Assembly: GCF_003334405.1 (NCBI RefSeq)
Contig: NZ_QOWM01000004.1
Source of the DNA: Escherichia coli
Lineage (GTDB): Bacteria > Pseudomonadota > Gammaproteobacteria > Enterobacterales > Enterobacteriaceae
Strand: one strand, 5' to 3'
DNA: 64,000 nucleotides
Of this stretch, positions 4,371 to 27,117 are shown in pieces. The stretch's first letter is position 1. Each line of letters begins with the position of its first letter. The notes under the pieces were generated by a model. That model saw only the letters and a list, made by a program, of their open reading frames with translations, was not told where the DNA came from and ran no database searches. The position numbers and the translations under genes were made by a program.

Positions 4371-7300
4371 TTAACCTATAGTCATTAAGCTGGCGTTACC
4401 GCCAGCGGCAGCGGTATTCACACTCAGCGAACGCTCGATATACAGCCGTTCCAGAAGGATATTGCTTTCGCCACGGGCAAAACCCTGCACCGAAACAATT
4501 GTGCCATCCCGCGCGGCAACTGCTTCACACAATGCGCGAAGCTGATCCGAATCACCGTGGAAGATCACCGCATCAAACGGTTGAGCGGTTATATTTTCCG
4601 CTTTCGCCAGTTGAATACGTTCGCTGACTGCCGATGGCAATGCCTTCACTAACTGACGATGCAGCGCGTCATCCGGCCACAGTACCTGGCTGCCCACCGC
4701 CAGCACGGCGGCGAGCTGAGTCAGCGCATCCTGCTCATCATCGGCAATACACAACACGCGCTCACGCGGCAGCAGCGTCCAGGTGTTGCGTTCACCCGTC
4801 GGCCCCGGCAGCAATCGTTGTGTTCCTGCCTGCGCCAGCTCGCCATATTGCGTACATAACGCCTGCAATTCTGGACGATTTGCTGCCCATTCCCGCAGTG
4901 CATTTAGCGGCTGAGTCAATGCGGCTTTCAACTGCGCATCGACCGGATACTTTGCATCCTGACGCGCGAGCGTCACTGCCAGCGCACTTTCCGGGCGATT
5001 CGCCAGCAGACGGTAGAGATAGAGCGGACCGCCTGCTTTCGGCCCGGTACCGGACAACCCTTCGCCGCCGAACGGCTGCACACCAACCACTGCGCCCACC
5101 ATATTACGGTTAACATACAGGTTACCAACATGGGCCGAGCCAGTGACCTGGGCGATGGTTTCATCAATGCGCGTATGGACGCCAAGCGTCAGACCATAAC
5201 CGGAAGCGTTAATCTGCTCGATCAGCTCTGGTAGCTGGTTACGGTTGTAACGCACCACATGCAGCACCGGACCAAAGACCTCTTTTTGCAATTCGGCAAA
5301 GTCATCCAGTTCGATCAGCGTCGGGGCGACAAAGGTGCCGCTTTGCCATTCACGGGCATCTTCGCTGTTTTCCCGCACCGCCTGGAACACCGGACGGCCT
5401 TTGCTACGCATGGTCTGAATATGGCGCTCAATATTGGCTTTCGCTTCGCTATCAATCACTGGACCGATATCGGTGGTCAGGCGACCCGGATTACCTATCC
5501 GGCATTCGGCCATTGCGCCGCGCAGCATTTTCAACGTGTGGTCGGCAATCTCATCTTGCAGGCACAGCACGCGCAGCGCCGAACAACGCTGACCCGCACT
5601 GTCGAACGCCGAGGCCAGTACATCCACGACGACCTGTTCGGTCAGTGCTGAAGAATCGACAATCATCGCGTTCATGCCGCCGGTTTCAGCGATGAGCGGA
5701 ATAGGGCGACCCTGAGCGTCCAGGCGGCTGGCGATATTGCGCTGCAGTAACGTAGCGACTTCGGTTGAACCGGTAAACATCACCCCGCGCACGCGATCAT
5801 CACCCGTCAGTTGCGCGCCCACGGTTTCACCCCGACCTGGCAGCAATTGCACCACGCCTGGCGGTACACCCGCTTCCAGCAAAATGGCGATCCCTTGCGC
5901 GGCAATCAGCGGCGTTTGTTCTGCCGGTTTTGCCAGCACGCTGTTACCTGCCGCCAGTGCGGCGGCGATCTGCCCGGTGAAAATAGCCAGCGGGAAGTTC
6001 CACGGACTGATACACACCACAGGCCCTAATGGACGGTGGGTTTCGTTAGCGAAATCATCCCGCACCTGTCCGGCGTAGTAGTGGAGAAAATCGACCGCTT
6101 CGCGCACTTCGGCAATGGCGTTACTGAAGGTTTTTCCGGCCTCACGCACCAGAATACCAATCAGTTGCTGCATCTGGCTTTCCATCAGCACGGCAGCGCG
6201 GTGCAAAATCGCTGCGCGTTCAGCCGGAGGCGTGGCAAACCAGATTGGCGCGTTATTAACCGCACTTTCCAGCGCCTGTTCTACTTCACGCGGCGTGGCT
6301 TCACGCACATAGCCCACAATATCTTTCGGTTCCGCAGGGTTAATAACGGGCGACATCTCACCTGCCGCTACCGGTTGTTCCAGCATTGGCAAGGCCTGCC
6401 ATTTTTGCAGTGCACTATTGAGCAGGGCAGAGGAGAGCGAGGCCAGGCGGTGTTCGTTAGCGAGATCCAGCCCTGCCGAGTTGTCGCGCCCGTGACCGTA
6501 AAGATCGCGCGGCAGGGGAATTTTCGGATGCGGTAATCCAGTTTGCCCTTCCTGTTGCGCCAGTTTTTCTACAGCAGTGACCGGATCGGCGACCAGTTCA
6601 TCCAGTGGCAAAGAGGTGTCGGCAATACGGTTAACAAACGAGGTGTTAGCACCGTTTTCCAGCAGGCGACGCACCAGATACGCCAACAGCGTTTCATGTG
6701 TGCCAACCGGAGCATAAATACGACACGGACGGTTAAGTTTGCCGTCGGCAACTTTCCCGGTGACCTGCTCATACAGTGGCTCGCCCATACCATGCAGGCA
6801 CTGGAACTCGTACTGACCCGGGTAGTAGTTCTGCCCCGCCAGTTGATAAATCGCCGCCAGCGTATGGGCGTTGTGCGTCGCGAACTGCGGGTAGATTAGA
6901 TTCGGCACCGCCAGCAGCTTTTTCGCACAGGCGAGATAAGAAACGTCGGTATACACCTTGCGGGTATAAACCGGATAACCTTCAAGGCCGTCCATCTGCG
7001 CACGCTTAATTTCACTATCCCAGTACGCGCCTTTCACCAGGCGAATCATCAGACGGCGACGGCTGCGGGTGGCGAGATCAATCAGGTAATCGATCACCAA
7101 CGGGCAGCGTTTTTGATAAGCCTGAATAACAAAACCGATGCCGTTCCAGCCTGCCAGTTCCGGCTCGAAACAGAGTTTTTCCAGCAGATCGAGGGAGATC
7201 TCCAGGCGATCGGACTCTTCGGCGTCAATGTTGATACCAATATCGTACTGACGCGCCAGCAGGGTGAGTGATTTCAGACGCGGGTAAAGCTCTTCCATTA

Positions 7301-15972: not shown

Positions 15973-17298
15973 TTAACCTCTCAGAATCCCGCGATCGGGA
16001 CTTACCCAACGGGCGCGTTGCTTTTTAGGCATCAACATGACTCGTGTAAATGATACCAATGTCGTTGCCAGGCTCAGCATCCAGAAAATAACCGGGAACC
16101 AAATAATCCAGAAAAGCGATGAAGTCAGATTATGCTCATAGCGATTCTCGATCATCAGGCTGACAATAAATTGCAGTAAACATAACGTACACAATAATAT
16201 TCCGGCAGTATGTGTCGCAGCGATATGTGTCAATTCAATATTTAACGGTACACCGGCAAGTTGGACTGCGTAAATAATGAAACCGACCAGGCAGGTGAAG
16301 GCCCATATTGTCGTCAGGCAGTATTCAAAAAACAGCGGCCACATTCGAAAGTTTTCTTTGCGCCACAACCTTGTCATATTTTTGAGGAATACTTCTGCAC
16401 CGCCCTGAGCCCAGCGCAGGCGCTGTTTCCACAGCCCTTTTAACGTTTCAGGCATTAATATCCAGCACAGTGCCCGTGGCTCGTAAAAAATCGTCCACTG
16501 ATTCAACTGCAGCTTCCAGCTAATATCAATATCTTCGGTGATCATATCGTCACTCCAGTAACCCACTTCTGCCAGGGCGCTGCGACGAAATGCGGCAATA
16601 ACACCGGAAACGGTAAATACGTTTCCATAGATACGCTGGGTTCGCTTGATCAAACCAATAATTGAGGAATACTCGCCAACCTGAATTTTACCCACCAGGG
16701 TAGAACGTGTTCGAATACGAGGATTACCGGTTACGGCACCCACACGCGGGTTGTACAACATCGGTTCCACAATATATGCCGCCGCATCGCGGTCTAATAA
16801 CGCATCGCCATCAATGCACACCAGATATTCACTTTTCGCCGCGGCAGCTCCGGTTTTAAGCGCAATGGCTTTCCCCTGGTTTTGCGCCAGATGAATGACC
16901 CGCAAATGGGGAATTTGTGCAGCCATGCGATCCAGGATGGCACGGGTTTTATCTGTTGAACCGTCATTTACGGCAATAACTTCAATGTTCTCATAACGCT
17001 GTGCTAAAGCGGCGTGTATGGTTTCCTCAACGTTTTTCTCCTCATTAAAACAGGGAATGATAATGGAGATAGACGGATTATCTTTCAACTGGGGAGCTGG
17101 TGCGTTTTCTCCCCACGGCCAGTGGCGTTCACGATAGACCCAGAAATAGACGCCGCCAACAATCCACATAATGGACATAAAAAACGGCCAGAAGAAAACG
17201 AACCTCATCATCAGTTCACCAGAGTGAAAGTACGCTACGCATAGGGGTATGCATAACACCAGACATAATATAAAAAACGATACGATGCGATTAATCAT
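15973..17298 (-). CDS. pgaC: PgaC, GT2-family poly-beta-1,6-N-acetylglucosamine synthase
   Basis: ORF track 441 aa; glycosyltransferase family 2 motifs ([13 protein letters not shown]-like). Confidence 0.95.
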
Positions 17299-21741: not shown

Positions 21742-21980
21742 CCTGTATTACTCCATGTATTGCCAAAATCTCTCTCTGTATCTAATTACAGGTAACTGAA
21801 AAGAAAGATATTTTTGCACCTCATAATCCGTTATTAAACGCGGAAGAGAGACGTGAATTGTTGATGATGAGAAGAAGAAATGATGAGCAGAGTGTCCATA
21901 TAAAATCCTTTTCTCGCCCGAAAATCCATTCCAATGATGAGGATCTTCAGGAATACGGCATAAATCCCAATGCCTTTTTC
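21742..21980 (-). promoter_or_regulatory. pgaA 5' leader region (site of CsrA-mediated translational repression)
   Basis: Long untranslated region upstream of pgaA with multiple GGA motifs on the transcribed strand; extent approximate. Confidence 0.5.
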
Positions 21981-22327
21981 AAAATAAATTAGGATTAAAA
22001 TAATTAAATCAGTAAATTCCGATGCATGATTTCGGATTTTTCGAAAGTCCTGATGAAAGGCTGCGCTACGGCACTCACGGATTTAATTGTTATTCCTAAT
22101 GTATCTATGAATTAATGTTTTATAAGGATTTTCTATAACCATTTATAAGTATTTTCAAGCCTGGCTTGTTGCAAACAATGTATAAAGCACTTAGGCAATA
22201 ATAATTACATTCAGCAACTATCATCATCGGTATTGTTTGTGGGCGGAATTTCATATTGACAACAGTACAGTTCTTATATCTATTAATAATAGAAAGGGAT
22301 CTACAACCTACAGATTGGTGTAGCTTT

Positions 22328-23686
22328 ATGGAAAAAGACTATTTGAGAATTAGTAGTACTGTATTAGTGAGCTTATTGTTTGGGCTTGCTTTGGTTTTGG
22401 TGAATAGTTGGTTTAATCAGCCAGGCGTTGAGGAAGTTGTTCCACGATCAACCTATCTGATGGTAATGATTGCTTTATTTTTTATCGATACTGTTGCATT
22501 TATTTTTATGCAGTTGTATTTCATTTATGACCGTAGGCAATTTTCAAACTGTGTACTTAGTTTGGCTTTTCTGAGTTGTTTGATTTACTTTGTTATAACC
22601 GTCATTATCATTCAGCAAATTATTGAGGAGCGTTTGACAAGCAGTGTTGTCCAAAATGACATTGCAATCTATTATTTGTTTCGTCAGATGAGTTTGTGCA
22701 TATTAATATTTCTGGCATTGGTGAATAAAGTTAGTGAAAACACAAAACAGCGCAATTTATTTTCCAAAAAAATGACTTTGTGCATAAGTTTGTTTTTTGT
22801 TTTTGGGGGGCCGATAGTTGCTCACATACTTTCTAGTCATTATGAGAGCTACAATTTACACATTGCCGAGTTAACCAATGAAAATGGTCAGGTGGTTTGG
22901 AAAGCCTCATATGTTACCATAATGATTTTCATGTGGTTAACCTTGCTTTCGGTTAATCTATACTTTAATGGTTTACGCTATGATATCTGGAATGGAGTGA
23001 CGGTGATTGCTTTTTGTGCCGTACTGTACAATATCTCTCTGTTATTTATGAGCAGGTATAGCGTGTCCACTTGGTATATTAGTCGCACTATTGAAGTAGT
23101 CAGTAAGTTAACCGTTATGGTAATATTTATGTGCCATATATTCAGTGCGCTACGAGTAACAAAGAACATTGCACATCGCGATCCCTTAACCAATATATTT
23201 AACAGAAATTATTTTTTTAATGAACTGACAGTTCAATCAGCATCAGCCCAAAAAACGCCTTATTGCGTCATGATTATGGATATCGACCACTTCAAAAAAG
23301 TCAACGACACCTGGGGGCATCCGGTTGGCGATCAGGTGATAAAAACAGTGGTGAATATCATTGGGAAAAGCATACGACCAGATGACCTTTTAGCGCGCGT
23401 CGGCGGCGAAGAGTTTGGCGTCTTGCTGACGGACATCGATACTGAACGTGCGAAAGCTTTAGCGGAAAGGATTCGGGAAAATGTTGAGCGTTTAACTGGC
23501 GATAATCCTGAATACGCTATACCACAAAAAGTGACGATTAGTATTGGCGCTGTTGTGACTCAGGAAAATGCGTTAAACCCAAATGAGATCTATCGACTGG
23601 CTGATAACGCACTTTACGAGGCGAAAGAGACCGGGCGTAATAAGGTGGTTGTGAGGGATGTGGTGAATTTTTGTGAGTCACCATAA
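22328..23686 (+). CDS. dgcT: DgcT (YcdT), membrane-anchored GGDEF diguanylate cyclase
   Basis: ORF track 22256..23686; start trimmed to MEKDYLRISSTVLV (452 aa); C-terminal GGEEF motif (RVGGEEFGVLL). Confidence 0.93.
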   Translation: MEKDYLRISSTVLVSLLFGLALVLVNSWFNQPGVEEVVPRSTYLMVMIALFFIDTVAFIFMQLYFIYDRRQFSNCVLSLAFLSCLIYFVITVIIIQQIIEERLTSSVVQNDIAIYYLFRQMSLCILIFLALVNKVSENTKQRNLFSKKMTLCISLFFVFGGPIVAHILSSHYESYNLHIAELTNENGQVVWKASYVTIMIFMWLTLLSVNLYFNGLRYDIWNGVTVIAFCAVLYNISLLFMSRYSVSTWYISRTIEVVSKLTVMVIFMCHIFSALRVTKNIAHRDPLTNIFNRNYFFNELTVQSASAQKTPYCVMIMDIDHFKKVNDTWGHPVGDQVIKTVVNIIGKSIRPDDLLARVGGEEFGVLLTDIDTERAKALAERIRENVERLTGDNPEYAIPQKVTISIGAVVTQENALNPNEIYRLADNALYEAKETGRNKVVVRDVVNFCESP

Positions 23687-23726
23687 AGCGGCATTTTGAT
23701 CCTACCCACGTAATATGGACACAGGC

Positions 23727-24593
23727 CTAAGCGAGGTTCTTGTTTTCAAATTGTTCCGGACTGAGGCCGCCACACCAACTGTGCCGCCGCCACCGATTGT
23801 AATCACATTCGATATAATTAAACACCGTTGCCCGCATTATTTCCCGGCTGATAAAGTGTTCTCCATGGATACATTCCACTTTCAGCGAATGAAAGAAGCT
23901 TTCCACGCAGGCATTATCGTAGCAGCAACCTTTTGCGCTCATACTTCCACGCAGATTATGCCGCTTCAGTTGCGCCTGATAATCTGCTGAACAGTACTGG
24001 CCTCCACGGTCCGTGTGAACGATAACGTTCCGGGGCCTCTTACGCCGCCACAGCGCCATCTGCAGGGCATCGCAGGCCAGTTGCGCCGTCATGCGTGGCG
24101 ACATTGACCAGCCAATAACGGCACGTGACCACAGGTCAATGACCACTGCCAGATACAGCCAGCCTTCATCTGTACGTAAGTACGTGATGTCTCCTGCCCA
24201 CTTCTGGTTCGGGCCACTGGCGTAAAAATCCTGCTCCAACAGATTTTCTGACACAGGCAGGCCGTGTGCGCGGTAGCTGACCGGGCTGAACTTCCGGGAG
24301 GCCTTTGCCCTCAGTCCCTGACGGCGCAGGCTTGCCGCCACGGTTTTTACGTTAAAGGGGTAACCCTGAGCACGCAGTTCATCCGTCAGGCGTGGGGCAC
24401 CGTAACGCTGTTTTGACCGGGTAAAAGCCGCGAGGACAACGCTGTCGCAGTGTTGGCGGAACTGCTGACGCGTGCTTATCCTTGTCCGCCGCTGACACCA
24501 CGTATACCAGCCGCTGCGGGCCACCCGGAGCACGCGGCACATTGCTTTGATGCTGAACTCAGCCTGATGTTTTTCAATAAAGACATACTTCAT
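23727..24593 (-). CDS. insF: IS3 OrfB (InsF) transposase, DDE catalytic domain
   Basis: ORF track 288 aa [32 protein letters not shown]; overlaps orfA (ATGA). Confidence 0.95.
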
Positions 24594-24889
24594 TTCAGGC
24601 GCTTCGCGAAGTATGTCGCGGCCTTTTGGAGGATAGCCAGCTCTTCATCCCGTTCTGCCAGCTGGCGTTTGAGACGTGCAATCTCGGTAGACATCTCCAG
24701 TTCACGTTCAGAAGACGTCTGCTGATTTTGCTGTTTACTGCGCCAGTTGTAGAGTTGTGATTCATACAGGCTGAGTTCACGGGCTGCGGCAGTAACACCG
24801 ATGCGTTCAGCAAGCTTCAGGGCTTCACTGCGAAATTCAGGCGAATGCTGTTTACGGGGTTTTTTACTGGTTGATACTGTTTTTGTCAT
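24590..24889 (-). CDS. insE: IS3 OrfA (InsE), HTH DNA-binding transposase subunit
   Basis: ORF track 24590..24898 (GTG-extended); ATG gives [31 protein letters not shown] (99 aa). Confidence 0.93.
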
Positions 24890-24954
24890 GTGAGTCACCT
24901 CTGACTGAGAGTTTACTCACTTAGCCGCGTGTCCACTATTGCTGGGTAAGATCA

Positions 24955-25298
24955 GTGCCTGGCACACGCGTTTGATGGAAGACGGCGTTCAGGCAATGCG
25001 CGATTATCTTGCCGGACTGGATATCGCTTCGCCAGAGCATCAGGTTCTGATGAACGTAACAGCAAAAAGCGAGGTCGCTCCGTCAATTATCAAAGAAAAT
25101 CTCTCATTACACTTAACTCATACGGTGAAATGGACTGAATCTCTCGATACATTTCTGAATATGCCAACCCCGGTAGCTTTCCTTGAAATAAGTAATAAGC
25201 CCTATTTGGGGAATATGTTAAATGATTTTGCTGGCGTGGATCAGCAACGAGTTATGCATTGTCGTAAAGCATTTAGTGATGCAAAGGTATTCAAATGA
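24955..25298 (+). pseudogene. ymdE: Truncated C-terminal fragment of an acyltransferase (malonyl-CoA:ACP transacylase-like) gene abutting IS3
   Basis: ORF track 24939..25298 begins inside the IS3 inverted repeat; no plausible N-terminal domain; translation resembles the C-terminal lobe of FabD-like acyltransferases. Confidence 0.6.
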
Positions 25299-26281
25299 TT
25301 CCTGATTATTTAACTTTTATTCGCTTTCAGGATAAACGAAATCTGATATACATTTATGCTATTGGACTTATTCTGATAGGCTTTTATTGGAAGAATGCAG
25401 GGTTTACTTTTCCATCAGAGGATATTGGTGTAGTTAGTGGGATTCTGGCTCTGGTGCTGTATAATTTTATTTTTGATCTCAAGGCGTACTGGGCTTATAA
25501 ATGCGTCACGAAGAATATCGATTTTTCGTGGTTTAAGAAAAAGCAGAACCACAAAATAGAATTATTTCTTACACAACCTCTGGTGGCAGGATTTCTGTCG
25601 TTAATCATGTTGAGTGCAATGAGTTGGGGGCTATACCAGCTTCTACCCTCGTTATATGCGCTGTTCCTGATTTCGTTACTTGGGCCGTTGGTCATCTTTC
25701 TGCTGTTTCGGATGATCCGCACCAGTTATGTCAAGCAGGTCGCTATTTCAGTAGCGAAAAAAGTAAAATATAAAAGTCTGACTCGCTATGTGCTGCTTTC
25801 GGTGTGCATCTCAACGGTTGTTAACCTGCTTACTATCAGCCCGTTGCGTAACAGTGATTCTTTTGTGACAGAGGGGCAGTGGTTAACGTTTAAATCGATA
25901 ATTGCATTGCTCATTCTTTGTGGCGTAGTGTTGGCGATTAATCTGTTTTTTCTGCGCTTCTCCAAGCGGTACGCTTTTCTGGGCAGGCTTTTTTTGCAGG
26001 AAATCGATCTGTTTTTCTCCAGTGAAAATGCGTTGTCGACCTTTTTTGCCAAGCCGCTTTGGCTTCGGTTATTCATATTGCTGGTTATTGAAGTGATGTG
26101 GATTACGCTGGTGTCGGTATTGGCAACGCTTGTAGAATGGCGGATTTGGTTTGAAGCCTATTTTTTACTCTGCTATGTACCGTGCTTAATTTACTATTTT
26201 TTCTATTGTCGATTCCTCTGGCATAACGATTTTATGATGGCATGTGACATGTATTTCCGTTGGGGGCATTTTAATAAGTGA
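25295..26281 (+). CDS. ycdU: YcdU, predicted polytopic inner-membrane protein of unknown function
   Basis: ORF track 328 aa [32 protein letters not shown]; many hydrophobic segments; AT-rich. Confidence 0.9.
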
Positions 26282-26413
26282 GGAAGTGATAGGAAGTGAC
26301 CAGATAATACATATATGTTCTGTACTCTCTTGCGCATTTTGATTGTTGACTGAGTAACCAGACAGTTGATGTGCACGATTTCCCCTCGCCCTAACAGACG
26401 TGGGCGGGGGCAC

Positions 26414-26835
26414 CCGGTGTGTGCAATATACGAAAAAAAAGCCCGTACTTTCGTACGAGCTCTTCTTTAAATATGGCGGTGAGGGGGGGATTGACTCGCT
26501 TCGCTCGCCCTGCGGGCAGCCCGCTCACTGCGTTCACGGTCTGTCCAACTGGCTGTCGCCAGTTGTCGAACCCCGGTCGGGGCTTCTCATCCCCCCGGTG
26601 TGTGCAATATACGAAAAAAAAGCCCGTACTTTCGTACGAGCTCTTCTTTAAATATGGCGGTGAGGGGGGGATTGACTCGCTTCGCTCGCCCTGCGGGCAG
26701 CCCGCTCACTGCGTTCACGGTCTGTCCAACTGGCTGTCGCCAGTTGTCGAACCCCGGTCGGGGCTTCTCATCCCCCCGGTGTGTGCAATATACGAAAAAA
26801 AAGCCCGTACTTTCGTACGAGCTCTTCTTTAAATA
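26414..26835. repeat. Tandem direct repeat, 181-bp unit x ~2.3, each unit carrying a copy of the serX 3' end and its terminator
   Basis: Identical ORF-track fragments begin at 26419, 26600 and 26781 (period 181); sequence ccggtgtgtgcaatatacgaaaaaaaagcccgtactttcgtacgagctcttctttaaatatggcggtgaggggggatt... repeats exactly. Confidence 0.92.
26781..26835 (-). terminator. serX rho-independent terminator (copies recur in each repeat unit)
   Basis: Reverse strand immediately after tRNA CCA: GAGCTCGTACGAAAGTACGGGC hairpin followed by TTTTTTTT. Confidence 0.75.
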
Positions 26836-26923
26836 TGGCGGTGAGGGGGGGATTCGAACCCCCGATACGTTGCCGTATACACACTTTCCAGGCGTGCTCC
26901 TTCAGCCACTCGGACACCTCACC
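26836..26923 (-). tRNA. serX: tRNA-Ser (GGA anticodon), 88 nt with long variable arm and encoded CCA
   Basis: Reverse strand reads GGTGAGGTGTCCGAGTGGCTGAAGGAGCACGCCTGGAAAGTGTGTATACGGCAACGTATCGGGGGTTCGAATCCCCCCCTCACCGCCA. Confidence 0.95.
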
Positions 26924-27117
26924 AAATTGTCGTTCCTGTCTTGCTGGAACGGGCGCTAATTTAGGGAAATCATGACCTGAGGTCAACAAACTTTTTGAAA
27001 AAATCGCGCGTTTATTCAAACTTCAATCAATGTGTGGTTTTAATAAGCGAAATCTGCTTTTTTTGCCACCGACCACGGATTTGTTATGCTGGTGGCCTTT
27101 GTAGATCATAATGATAA

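Follow-up and report, generated by a model that had tools for sequence, protein, structure and literature searches.

Introduction

The question raised by this locus is how a complete copy of the insertion sequence IS3 came to lie, with unmatched flanks, between an intact diguanylate cyclase gene and a severed gene fragment in Escherichia coli. The window, that is, the whole 64,000-nucleotide stretch of E. coli DNA that was analysed (NCBI RefSeq assembly GCF_003334405.1, contig NZ_QOWM01000004.1), carries around the element, in this order, pgaA, dgcT, IS3, the short gene fragment, ycdU, a tRNA-Ser gene, and ghrA. An earlier note on this DNA had explained the arrangement by a deletion linked to IS3, whether adjacent deletion or recombination between two IS3 copies, in which the 5' part of an acyltransferase-like gene was lost together with an unspecified amount of neighbouring DNA.

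Positions 23397 to 25298 of the window are base-for-base identical to MG1655 positions 1093945 to 1095846. The surrounding 10 kb, in which the window is short of one 181-bp repeat near serX, is otherwise 99.97% identical, with a few single-nucleotide polymorphisms. The window element and its neighbour are the same object as IS3D/insEF4 and ymdE (b1028) of MG1655, whose reference record annotates IS3D, insF4, insE4, the pseudogene ymdE (b1028), and ycdU. Annotations or publications therefore already cover the element and the pseudogene, as well as the missing island described below. The absence of a duplication, the exact breakpoints, and the second allele go beyond the published accounts of IS3D, ymdE, and O-island 47 (OI-47) that were consulted, and may add a little to them.

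A complete IS3 with unmatched flanks

The gene dgcT (ycdT; 22328 to 23686, plus strand), identified by its open reading frame, by GGDEF matches, and by an exact match to MG1655 b1025, is intact and ends, at its stop codon, 10 bp short of the IS3 end. The element occupies positions 23697 to 24954 on the minus strand, from TGATCC at its first bases to GATCA at its last. It is complete at 1258 bp and 100% identical to the K-12 copy IS3D (NC_000913.3, “insertion sequence:IS3D,” 1094245 to 1095502). Its two reading frames, both present in the annotation, are orfB (insF4; 23727 to 24593, minus strand), which encodes the DDE transposase domain and matches the NCBIfam IS3-family transposase profile NF033516 at 3.3e-101 (339 bits; cut-off, 160), and orfA (insE4; 24590 to 24889, minus strand, with its ATG at 24889 and its end at 24590), which covers positions 1 to 87 of the same profile (2e-09). 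A motif search located A-AAA-G at 24627 to 24623 on the minus strand (24623..24627), about 30 nt upstream of the orfA stop and just before the orfA/orfB overlap; this is the predicted slippery site for the -1 programmed frameshift joining orfA and orfB, and RefSeq labels identical IS3 copies “programmed frameshift.”

The terminal inverted repeats lie at 23697 to 23735 (the orfB-distal end, toward dgcT) and at 24916 to 24954 (the orfA-proximal end, toward the fragment), and 28 of their first 39 positions are identical in an ungapped comparison. The earlier description of a 1258-bp IS3 with inverted repeats, orfA, orfB, and A-AAA-G thus holds in every particular, the repeats being present in imperfect form. 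Length, imperfect TG...CA repeats, orfA/orfB with a DDE transposase, and the slippery motif are all those of IS3, and the feature that is absent is the 3-bp direct target duplication. The flanking 3 bp are TTT (23694 to 23696) on one side and GTG (24955 to 24957) on the other, and the 4-bp flanks, ATTT and GTGC, do not match either, so that at exact coordinates neither a 3-bp nor a 4-bp repeat, which the earlier note had named as grounds for abandoning its reading, is found. The mismatch between TTT and GTG indicates that this copy did not arise by simple insertion and leaves its identity as IS3 unaffected.

The flanks of the other four IS3 copies of MG1655 were inspected as a same-genome control. 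IS3B and IS3E have clean 3-bp duplications (GAT and GAC, respectively), and each splits one gene into contiguous halves; IS3C is flanked by GGT and GAT. IS3A, annotated as 1255 bp, lies between the unrelated pseudogenes eaeH' and ykgA', and neither a match to the normal IS3 right terminus nor a matching duplication was recovered for it. With two or three of the five K-12 copies devoid of a perfect duplication, its absence is meaningful but not rare. IS3A resembles the window element in lying between two unrelated gene fragments without a recovered duplication, and differs from it in its annotated length and in the lack of a normal right terminus.

The earlier note had also suggested an outward-reading hybrid promoter at the IS3 end facing the fragment. 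That end is the orfA-proximal one, and in the IS3 family the outward -35 element is carried by the opposite end. A promoter scan of positions 23500 to 25500 returned no plus-strand sigma-70-like site, and nothing in the analysis supports an outward or hybrid promoter toward the fragment and ycdU.

The ymdE remnant

The fragment beside IS3, ymdE' (24955 to 25298, plus strand; pseudogene b1028 in the MG1655 annotation), derives from a FabD-type malonyl-CoA:acyl carrier protein (ACP) transacylase gene. As had been noted before, the mechanically called reading frame of 24939 to 25298 opens inside the IS terminal repeat, at a TTG at 24939, whereas the IS ends at 24954; non-IS DNA begins at 24955, and the first whole codon of the remnant is at 24957. 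The remnant corresponds to nucleotides 599 to 942 of a 942-nucleotide gene, that is, to residues 201 to 313 (113 codons) and the stop codon. It aligns with positions 197 to 264 of the 290 positions of the FabD profile TIGR00128 at 37.1 bits, far below the curated cut-off of 260.9, and so is not a full-length ACP S-malonyltransferase match. Judged by these alignments, it is the C-terminal part of a malonyl-CoA:ACP transacylase, an assignment that agrees with the earlier “acyltransferase-like” and is more specific.

In alignments the full-length O157 protein matches PksC (1e-32) and E. coli FabD (1.3e-22), and its GHSVGE lines up with the GHSLGE nucleophile motif of PksC/FabD-type enzymes. The GHSxG nucleophile serine falls within the deleted residues 1 to 200. 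The remnant begins at A201, just ahead of a conserved histidine, and keeps only the downstream histidine motif (AWHT). With the catalytic serine deleted, the remnant cannot be an active transacylase, and ymdE' is a catalytically dead fragment. Goldstone et al. described ymdE in 2016 as “foreshortened by an IS3 element,” with 945-bp homologues outside phylogroup A, cited expression data for it, and proposed that function is possibly kept, since the gene has not decayed (PMC4951805). The lost catalytic serine counts against an enzymatic function of this kind. Between the K-12 and O157 versions of the remnant there are five substitutions, three synonymous and two non-synonymous, which are too few to judge selection.

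The membrane protein gene ycdU (25295 to 26281, plus strand; supported by its reading frame and by annotation) starts within the ymdE' stop codon, the two overlapping in ATGA. In O157:H7 the stop codon of the full-length malonyltransferase gene overlaps the ycdU start. In island-bearing strains ycdU closes the island's long run of genes on one strand, and in the window its upstream neighbours are missing.

An island lies between the same flanks in four genomes without the element

In O157:H7 strain MB41-1, window positions 21800 to 23697 align at 99.5% identity and positions 24955 to 26487 at 98.6%, in the same order and orientation, and 31,741 bp lies between the two IS3 flanks. This interval comprises an OI-47-type island and nucleotides 1 to 598 of the 942-nucleotide malonyltransferase gene, and it starts and stops exactly at the two IS3 termini: the left breakpoint is the flank TTT at 23694 to 23696, as comparison with island-bearing genomes shows, beyond which the sequence in those genomes runs on as TAGCGGGTGATTTTGG, and the right breakpoint is 24954|24955. 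Besides an EAL-domain protein gene next to dgcT, the island contains genes for a winged-helix regulator and a short-chain dehydrogenase/reductase (SDR), a fimbrial operon of the chaperone-usher type, and a two-partner secretion pair. It also includes an ABC transporter with a LolA-like protein, as well as a cluster comprising acpS, SDR, FabZ-like, ACP, aminomethyltransferase-family, and ketosynthase genes. The same island, in the same order and free of any IS, is present in the unrelated non-O157 strains TUM18530, TB06051, and UCPROB-002, and no IS3 was found inside it in these three genomes. Alignment to IS-free genomes, which the earlier note had recommended, thus defined the deleted interval in O157:H7 and in three unrelated strains, and its claim that the 5' part of the gene and adjoining DNA had been lost is borne out, with the flanks collinear.

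Collinear flanks around a gap that ends at both IS termini are the pattern of an IS-anchored deletion. On this comparison, the IS3 almost certainly marks a deletion rather than a simple insertion, with its termini as the breakpoints. A simple insertion would require that IS3 entered a locus already island-free and truncated and that its 3-bp duplication later mutated. Imperfect duplications do exist, since the flanks of IS3C differ at one base (GGT and GAT); TTT and GTG, however, differ at two of three positions, and the breakpoints relative to four IS-free genomes coincide on both sides with the IS termini. Moreover, none of the genomes inspected was truncated here yet free of the IS; a genome of that kind is what the earlier note had listed as overturning its reading. 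Simple insertion is on these grounds very improbable.

The lost DNA corresponds to O-island 47 of strain EDL933 (z1528 to z1556, 31,727 bp), which is classed as an O157 “O island” missing from K-12 (PMC8565820). The two agree in the EAL gene by dgcT, the ToxR-type winged-helix regulator, the fimbrial operon, the secretion pair, and the fatty-acid/polyketide-like cluster. They differ in interpretation: OI-47 was defined by its absence from K-12 and is usually treated as an O157 acquisition, whereas the comparison made here gives K-12 the derived, deleted state, and the OI-47-type island is present in non-O157 strains too. That the island was gained in the O157 lineage, with K-12 ancestral, would suit its classification (PMC8565820), and some E. 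coli strains, such as EC444, do have dgcT beside tRNA-Ser with no island. K-12-type genomes, however, keep 344 or 529 bp of an island gene together with ycdU, and the kept part is 98.6% identical to O157, a divergence similar to that of the adjoining backbone. Since the gain of an island cannot leave a piece of it behind in the recipient, the remnant refutes the gain. Joining of the flanks by inversion or translocation between IS3 copies fares no better; flank order and orientation are those of IS-free genomes, which excludes an inversion. Together, these two possibilities are scarcely credible.

Two nested alleles among complete E. coli genomes

The junctions were surveyed in 5,426 complete E. 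coli genomes. A dgcT|IS3 junction identical to that of the window was present in 2,293 of them (42%), an IS3|remnant junction of either allele described below in 2,184, and the remnant with ycdU at at least 80% coverage in 2,590. The whole deleted 598 bp, and with it the full gene, was found in 390 genomes, which answers the earlier suggestion to look for an intact full-length homologue, and the last 185 bp alone of the 598 bp was found in about 727; all 39 of 39 sampled partial matches to the 598-bp query start at nucleotide 414.

The 598-bp segment occurs in two classes only, whole or reduced to its last 185 bp, and the partial matches reveal a second allele. In allele A, that of K-12 and the window, the junction is IS3|GTGCC with a 344-bp remnant (about 1,457 genomes, by subtraction). 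In allele B the junction is IS3|GGCGG with a 529-bp remnant, 185 bp longer (about 727 genomes); E. coli 55989, which we take to be the phylogroup B1 reference strain, carries it. The alleles have the left junction in common, their right endpoints lie 185 bp apart, and neither has a duplication; nested alleles of this form, with one IS junction common and the other differing, are those expected of deletion. Between A and B, 0 to 4 of 1258 bases differ in the IS and 3 to 7 of 1400 in the left flank, and these near-identical IS3 copies and left flanks indicate that both alleles go back to one insertion.

The counts bear again on simple insertion into an already truncated locus, for the remnant-bearing genomes nearly add up: the 390 with the full gene and the 2,184 with an IS3 junction leave only about 16 of the 2,590 over, and one sampled genome has an IS1 in this stretch. 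Roughly 100 to 190 genomes have the left junction without the right junction of A or B, among them the E110019 type.

Derivative and IS3-free arrangements

Derivatives of the IS3 alleles, rarer than A and B, show loss at either end of the element. In WP7-S17-ESBL-04 the other IS3 end, itself intact, is fused to pgaC at window position 16567; the 7.1 kb lost there takes in dgcT, pgaA, pgaB, and a portion of pgaC. Two genomes, E110019 among them, lack IS3 bases 24410 to 24954: base 24409, inside the element, directly adjoins the allele-B flank, and the cut-back stops exactly at the IS terminus. In p10B, ISKpn26 stands where the first 29 bp of IS3 and the greater part of dgcT would be.

Other arrangements are free of IS3. 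In NCTC9064 a deletion without an IS, about 29.6 kb long, runs from the regulator gene into ycdU; in EC444, dgcT directly adjoins tRNA-Ser; and in PK-F-10122 and STEC1588 the order is phoH-DUF2726-tRNA-Ser (serX), with the whole pga-ycdU block absent. The last two had been considered as deeper IS3 deletions in K-12-like serX regions without ycdU and were set aside, both being IS3-free phoH-DUF2726-serX genomes. Two further candidates were rejected. An apparent third endpoint in E110019, 9 bp upstream of site B, was a BLAST extension through chance matches, since at base level the junction consists of internal IS3 sequence joined to the allele-B flank; and E110019 and Z1323HEC0393, taken for two-copy intermediates at site A, are truncated-IS3 derivatives of allele B whose pieces had been joined in reverse.

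How the deletions may have arisen

A series of adjacent deletions made by the transposase of a single IS3 stands about an even chance of being the explanation of the locus. An ancestor of the K-12-type lineages had an OI-47-type island between dgcT and ycdU, as the comparison above shows. An IS3 would then have inserted in or next to that island, most simply at TTT in the spacer between dgcT and vmpA. In a second step, the IS3 transposase, acting in cis, would have joined the orfA-proximal end to a target in ymdE after nucleotide 413, and the intervening DNA would have been discarded, leaving allele B. A second event of the same kind would have taken 185 bp more and produced allele A. Later, the same element would have given rise to the 7.1-kb deletion from its other end into pgaC and, elsewhere, to the cut-back of the IS from its own terminus. 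Read parsimoniously, the nested endpoints place B before A.

Because no ancestor was found among the 5,426 genomes, the first insertion site and the order of events are inferred, and because deletions are possible from both IS3 ends, the first insertion need not have been at TTT by dgcT. The predicted ancestor, with the IS3 right end followed by TTT and island sequence, was found in 0 of the 5,426 genomes, the best matches being other IS3 copies. The junction expected of a single-copy ancestor is IS3|TTTTAGCGGGTG; in a two-copy intermediate, the IS3 end TGATCCTACC would come directly after ymdE sequence.

The other serious explanation is that a second IS3, in direct orientation, inserted in ymdE (after nucleotide 413 and later after nucleotide 598) and underwent RecA-dependent recombination with the copy on the dgcT side. 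Such recombination leaves one IS3 whose left flank stems from one insertion and whose right flank stems from the other. It thereby predicts what is observed, namely a complete IS3 between collinear flanks, without a duplication, and endpoints that are nested. The five IS3 copies of K-12 attest to past transposition activity. The IS3-family element IS150 offers a precedent, in that the rbs deletions have a common IS-side endpoint and have been ascribed to new insertion and recombination of identical copies, and about 70% of the large rearrangements in the long-term evolution experiment were due to recombination between IS copies (PMC4173774). Against two-copy recombination, an IS3 at site A with upstream ymdE kept was found in 0 of the 5,426 genomes, and for site B none of the same 5,426 split the 598-bp query into two places. 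The E110019 structure, cut back at the IS terminus, is not expected from recombination of complete copies, and, in an IS-free host, IS3 transposase by itself gave adjacent deletions of plasmid DNA (PMC8860574). None of this is conclusive, and two-copy recombination retains a probability somewhat short of even.

For the transposase route, terminus-anchored events run in both directions, and the E110019 structure could not be derived from recombination between two complete copies. Counting against it, IS3-family transposition proceeds by copy-out-paste-in, which by itself deletes no adjacent DNA. Transposase-dependent adjacent deletions that leave IS3 intact have been obtained in the IS-free host MDS42 (PMC8860574). 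As no intermediate survives, adjacent deletion and two-copy recombination are not separable by sequence alone.

Comparison with known IS-associated deletions

The IS150/rbs case resembles the present one in having an IS3-family element beside lost genes, a common IS-side endpoint with differing far endpoints, and one intact IS copy left without a matching duplication (PMC4173774). It differs in that its events took place in a laboratory experiment, whereas those at the dgcT-IS3 junction are old and widespread (42% of complete genomes). Kanai et al. (2022), citing Sekine et al. (1994), likewise reported deletions of various lengths from an IS3 end, with IS3 sometimes fully kept; their deletions were on the scale of a plasmid, with an expressed transposase and often the excision enhancer IEE, whereas the deletion here is chromosomal and spans 31.7 kb (PMC8860574).

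Discussion

The type of event is textbook and the locus is well known, so that the meaning of the finding beyond bookkeeping is small. What may be added is the breakpoint map, allele B, and the derivative alleles, which together show repeated deletion from both IS3 termini.

A broader reading is that IS3D has been a long-lived, two-ended generator of deletions that has repeatedly reshaped the pga-dgcT-OI-47-ycdU region in some 40% of sequenced E. coli. This is speculative and rather unlikely. If it were true, loss of the island would have been followed by the 185-bp loss and then by losses of dgcT and pgaABC in sublineages, and the survival of ymdE'-ycdU and, mostly, of dgcT would reflect selection on ycdU and dgcT, not chance. 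The ymdE-ycdU pair has been reported as a member of a mastitis-associated core gene set, an observation with which such a history would fit.

For the biology of E. coli, the comparison means that the K-12 arrangement at dgcT and ycdU is derived, OI-47 having been lost from K-12-type lineages and not simply gained by O157. In these lineages ycdU is the orphaned last gene of a lost cluster, which bears on the use of ycdU and ymdE as lineage markers and on studies of dgcT regulation. The allelic series, from the full gene through B and A to the pgaC-fused and truncated-IS forms, is a clean natural case of deletion anchored at an IS terminus and a possible lineage marker in its own right.

Secondary rearrangements of the IS3-marked locus

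Three derivatives in which an end of the dgcT-ycdU IS3 had been altered or joined to new sequence were found in other E. coli genomes. In WP7-S17-ESBL-04 (comparison locus L008), the intact dgcT-side end of IS3 was fused inside pgaC at local position 5000/5001 (window 16567/23697), a fusion that removes 7.1 kb, comprising part of pgaC together with pgaB, pgaA, and dgcT. Attrition of the pga locus in phylogroup A has been reported by Goldstone et al. (PMC4951805), and fusions of this kind may be the source of some of it. E110019 (L010, at about 6713) and Z1323HEC0393 carried a truncated IS3 that lacked the bases equivalent to window 24410-24954, orfA included, and in which internal IS3 sequence directly abutted the flank of allele B (the right junction with 185 bp more of ymdE than in the window), with a 1-bp overlap. 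The endpoint of this deletion was exactly the IS terminus, as expected for transposase cleavage followed by end joining. In p10B (L009, 3806-5001), the IS5-like element ISKpn26 took the place of the greater part of dgcT together with the initial 29 bp of IS3, and this is a case of one IS eroding another.

Among the 5,426 complete E. coli genomes, about 100 to 190 had the dgcT-IS3 junction and neither the right junction of allele A (that of the window and K-12) nor that of allele B. The E110019 type was the sole kind identified among them, and there could be further rightward endpoints among the remainder. Separately, in the allele B strain 55989 (L021, 1-2047), dgcT carried a frameshifted annotation, and a transposase gene of the IS4-like element ISVsa5 lay immediately upstream of it.

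Other IS3 copies of MG1655

IS3A (MG1655 315229-316483) is annotated at 1,255 bp and has the pseudogenes eaeH' and ykgA' on its two sides. A search for its normal right terminus gave no match, and this, with the annotated length and the pseudogene flanks, indicates that IS3A is probably a second deletion scar. IS3C (566777-568034), located in renD, was flanked by GGT and GAT, and the motif GATTAC opened the right flanks of both IS3B and IS3C.

ycdU and the serX repeat

The ycdU gene (window 25295-26281), whose ATG overlaps the stop codon of the malonyltransferase gene (ATGA), had no match in an NCBIfam family search. In island-bearing genomes it closes the long same-strand gene run of the island, and it is therefore an orphan of the lost cluster in K-12-type genomes. 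Downstream, a perfect 181-bp tandem repeat of 2.4 copies (window 26413-26854) extended into the region of the tRNA-Ser gene serX (26836-26923, minus strand), and it accounts for the repeated overlapping ORFs listed at window 26400-26960. The repeat units carry RtT sRNA-like annotation in other records, and their number differed between genomes, with MG1655 having one unit more than the window.

States of the locus without IS3

Several genomes lacked IS3 at the locus. In EC444 (L006), dgcT directly adjoined tRNA-Ser, and its 3' end diverged from window position 23649 on. PK-F-10122 (L012) and STEC1588 (L013) had the arrangement phoH-DUF2726-tRNA-Ser and were without pgaABCD, dgcT, the island, and ycdU. 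In NCTC9064 (L007, about 6995-7001), an IS-free deletion had taken about 29.6 kb out of the island. It left a winged-helix regulator gene, itself truncated, joined to a ycdU that lacked its 5' part, and the EAL gene adjoining dgcT was retained. This deletion is independent of the IS3-marked one; loss of the island has therefore occurred more than once and by differing routes.
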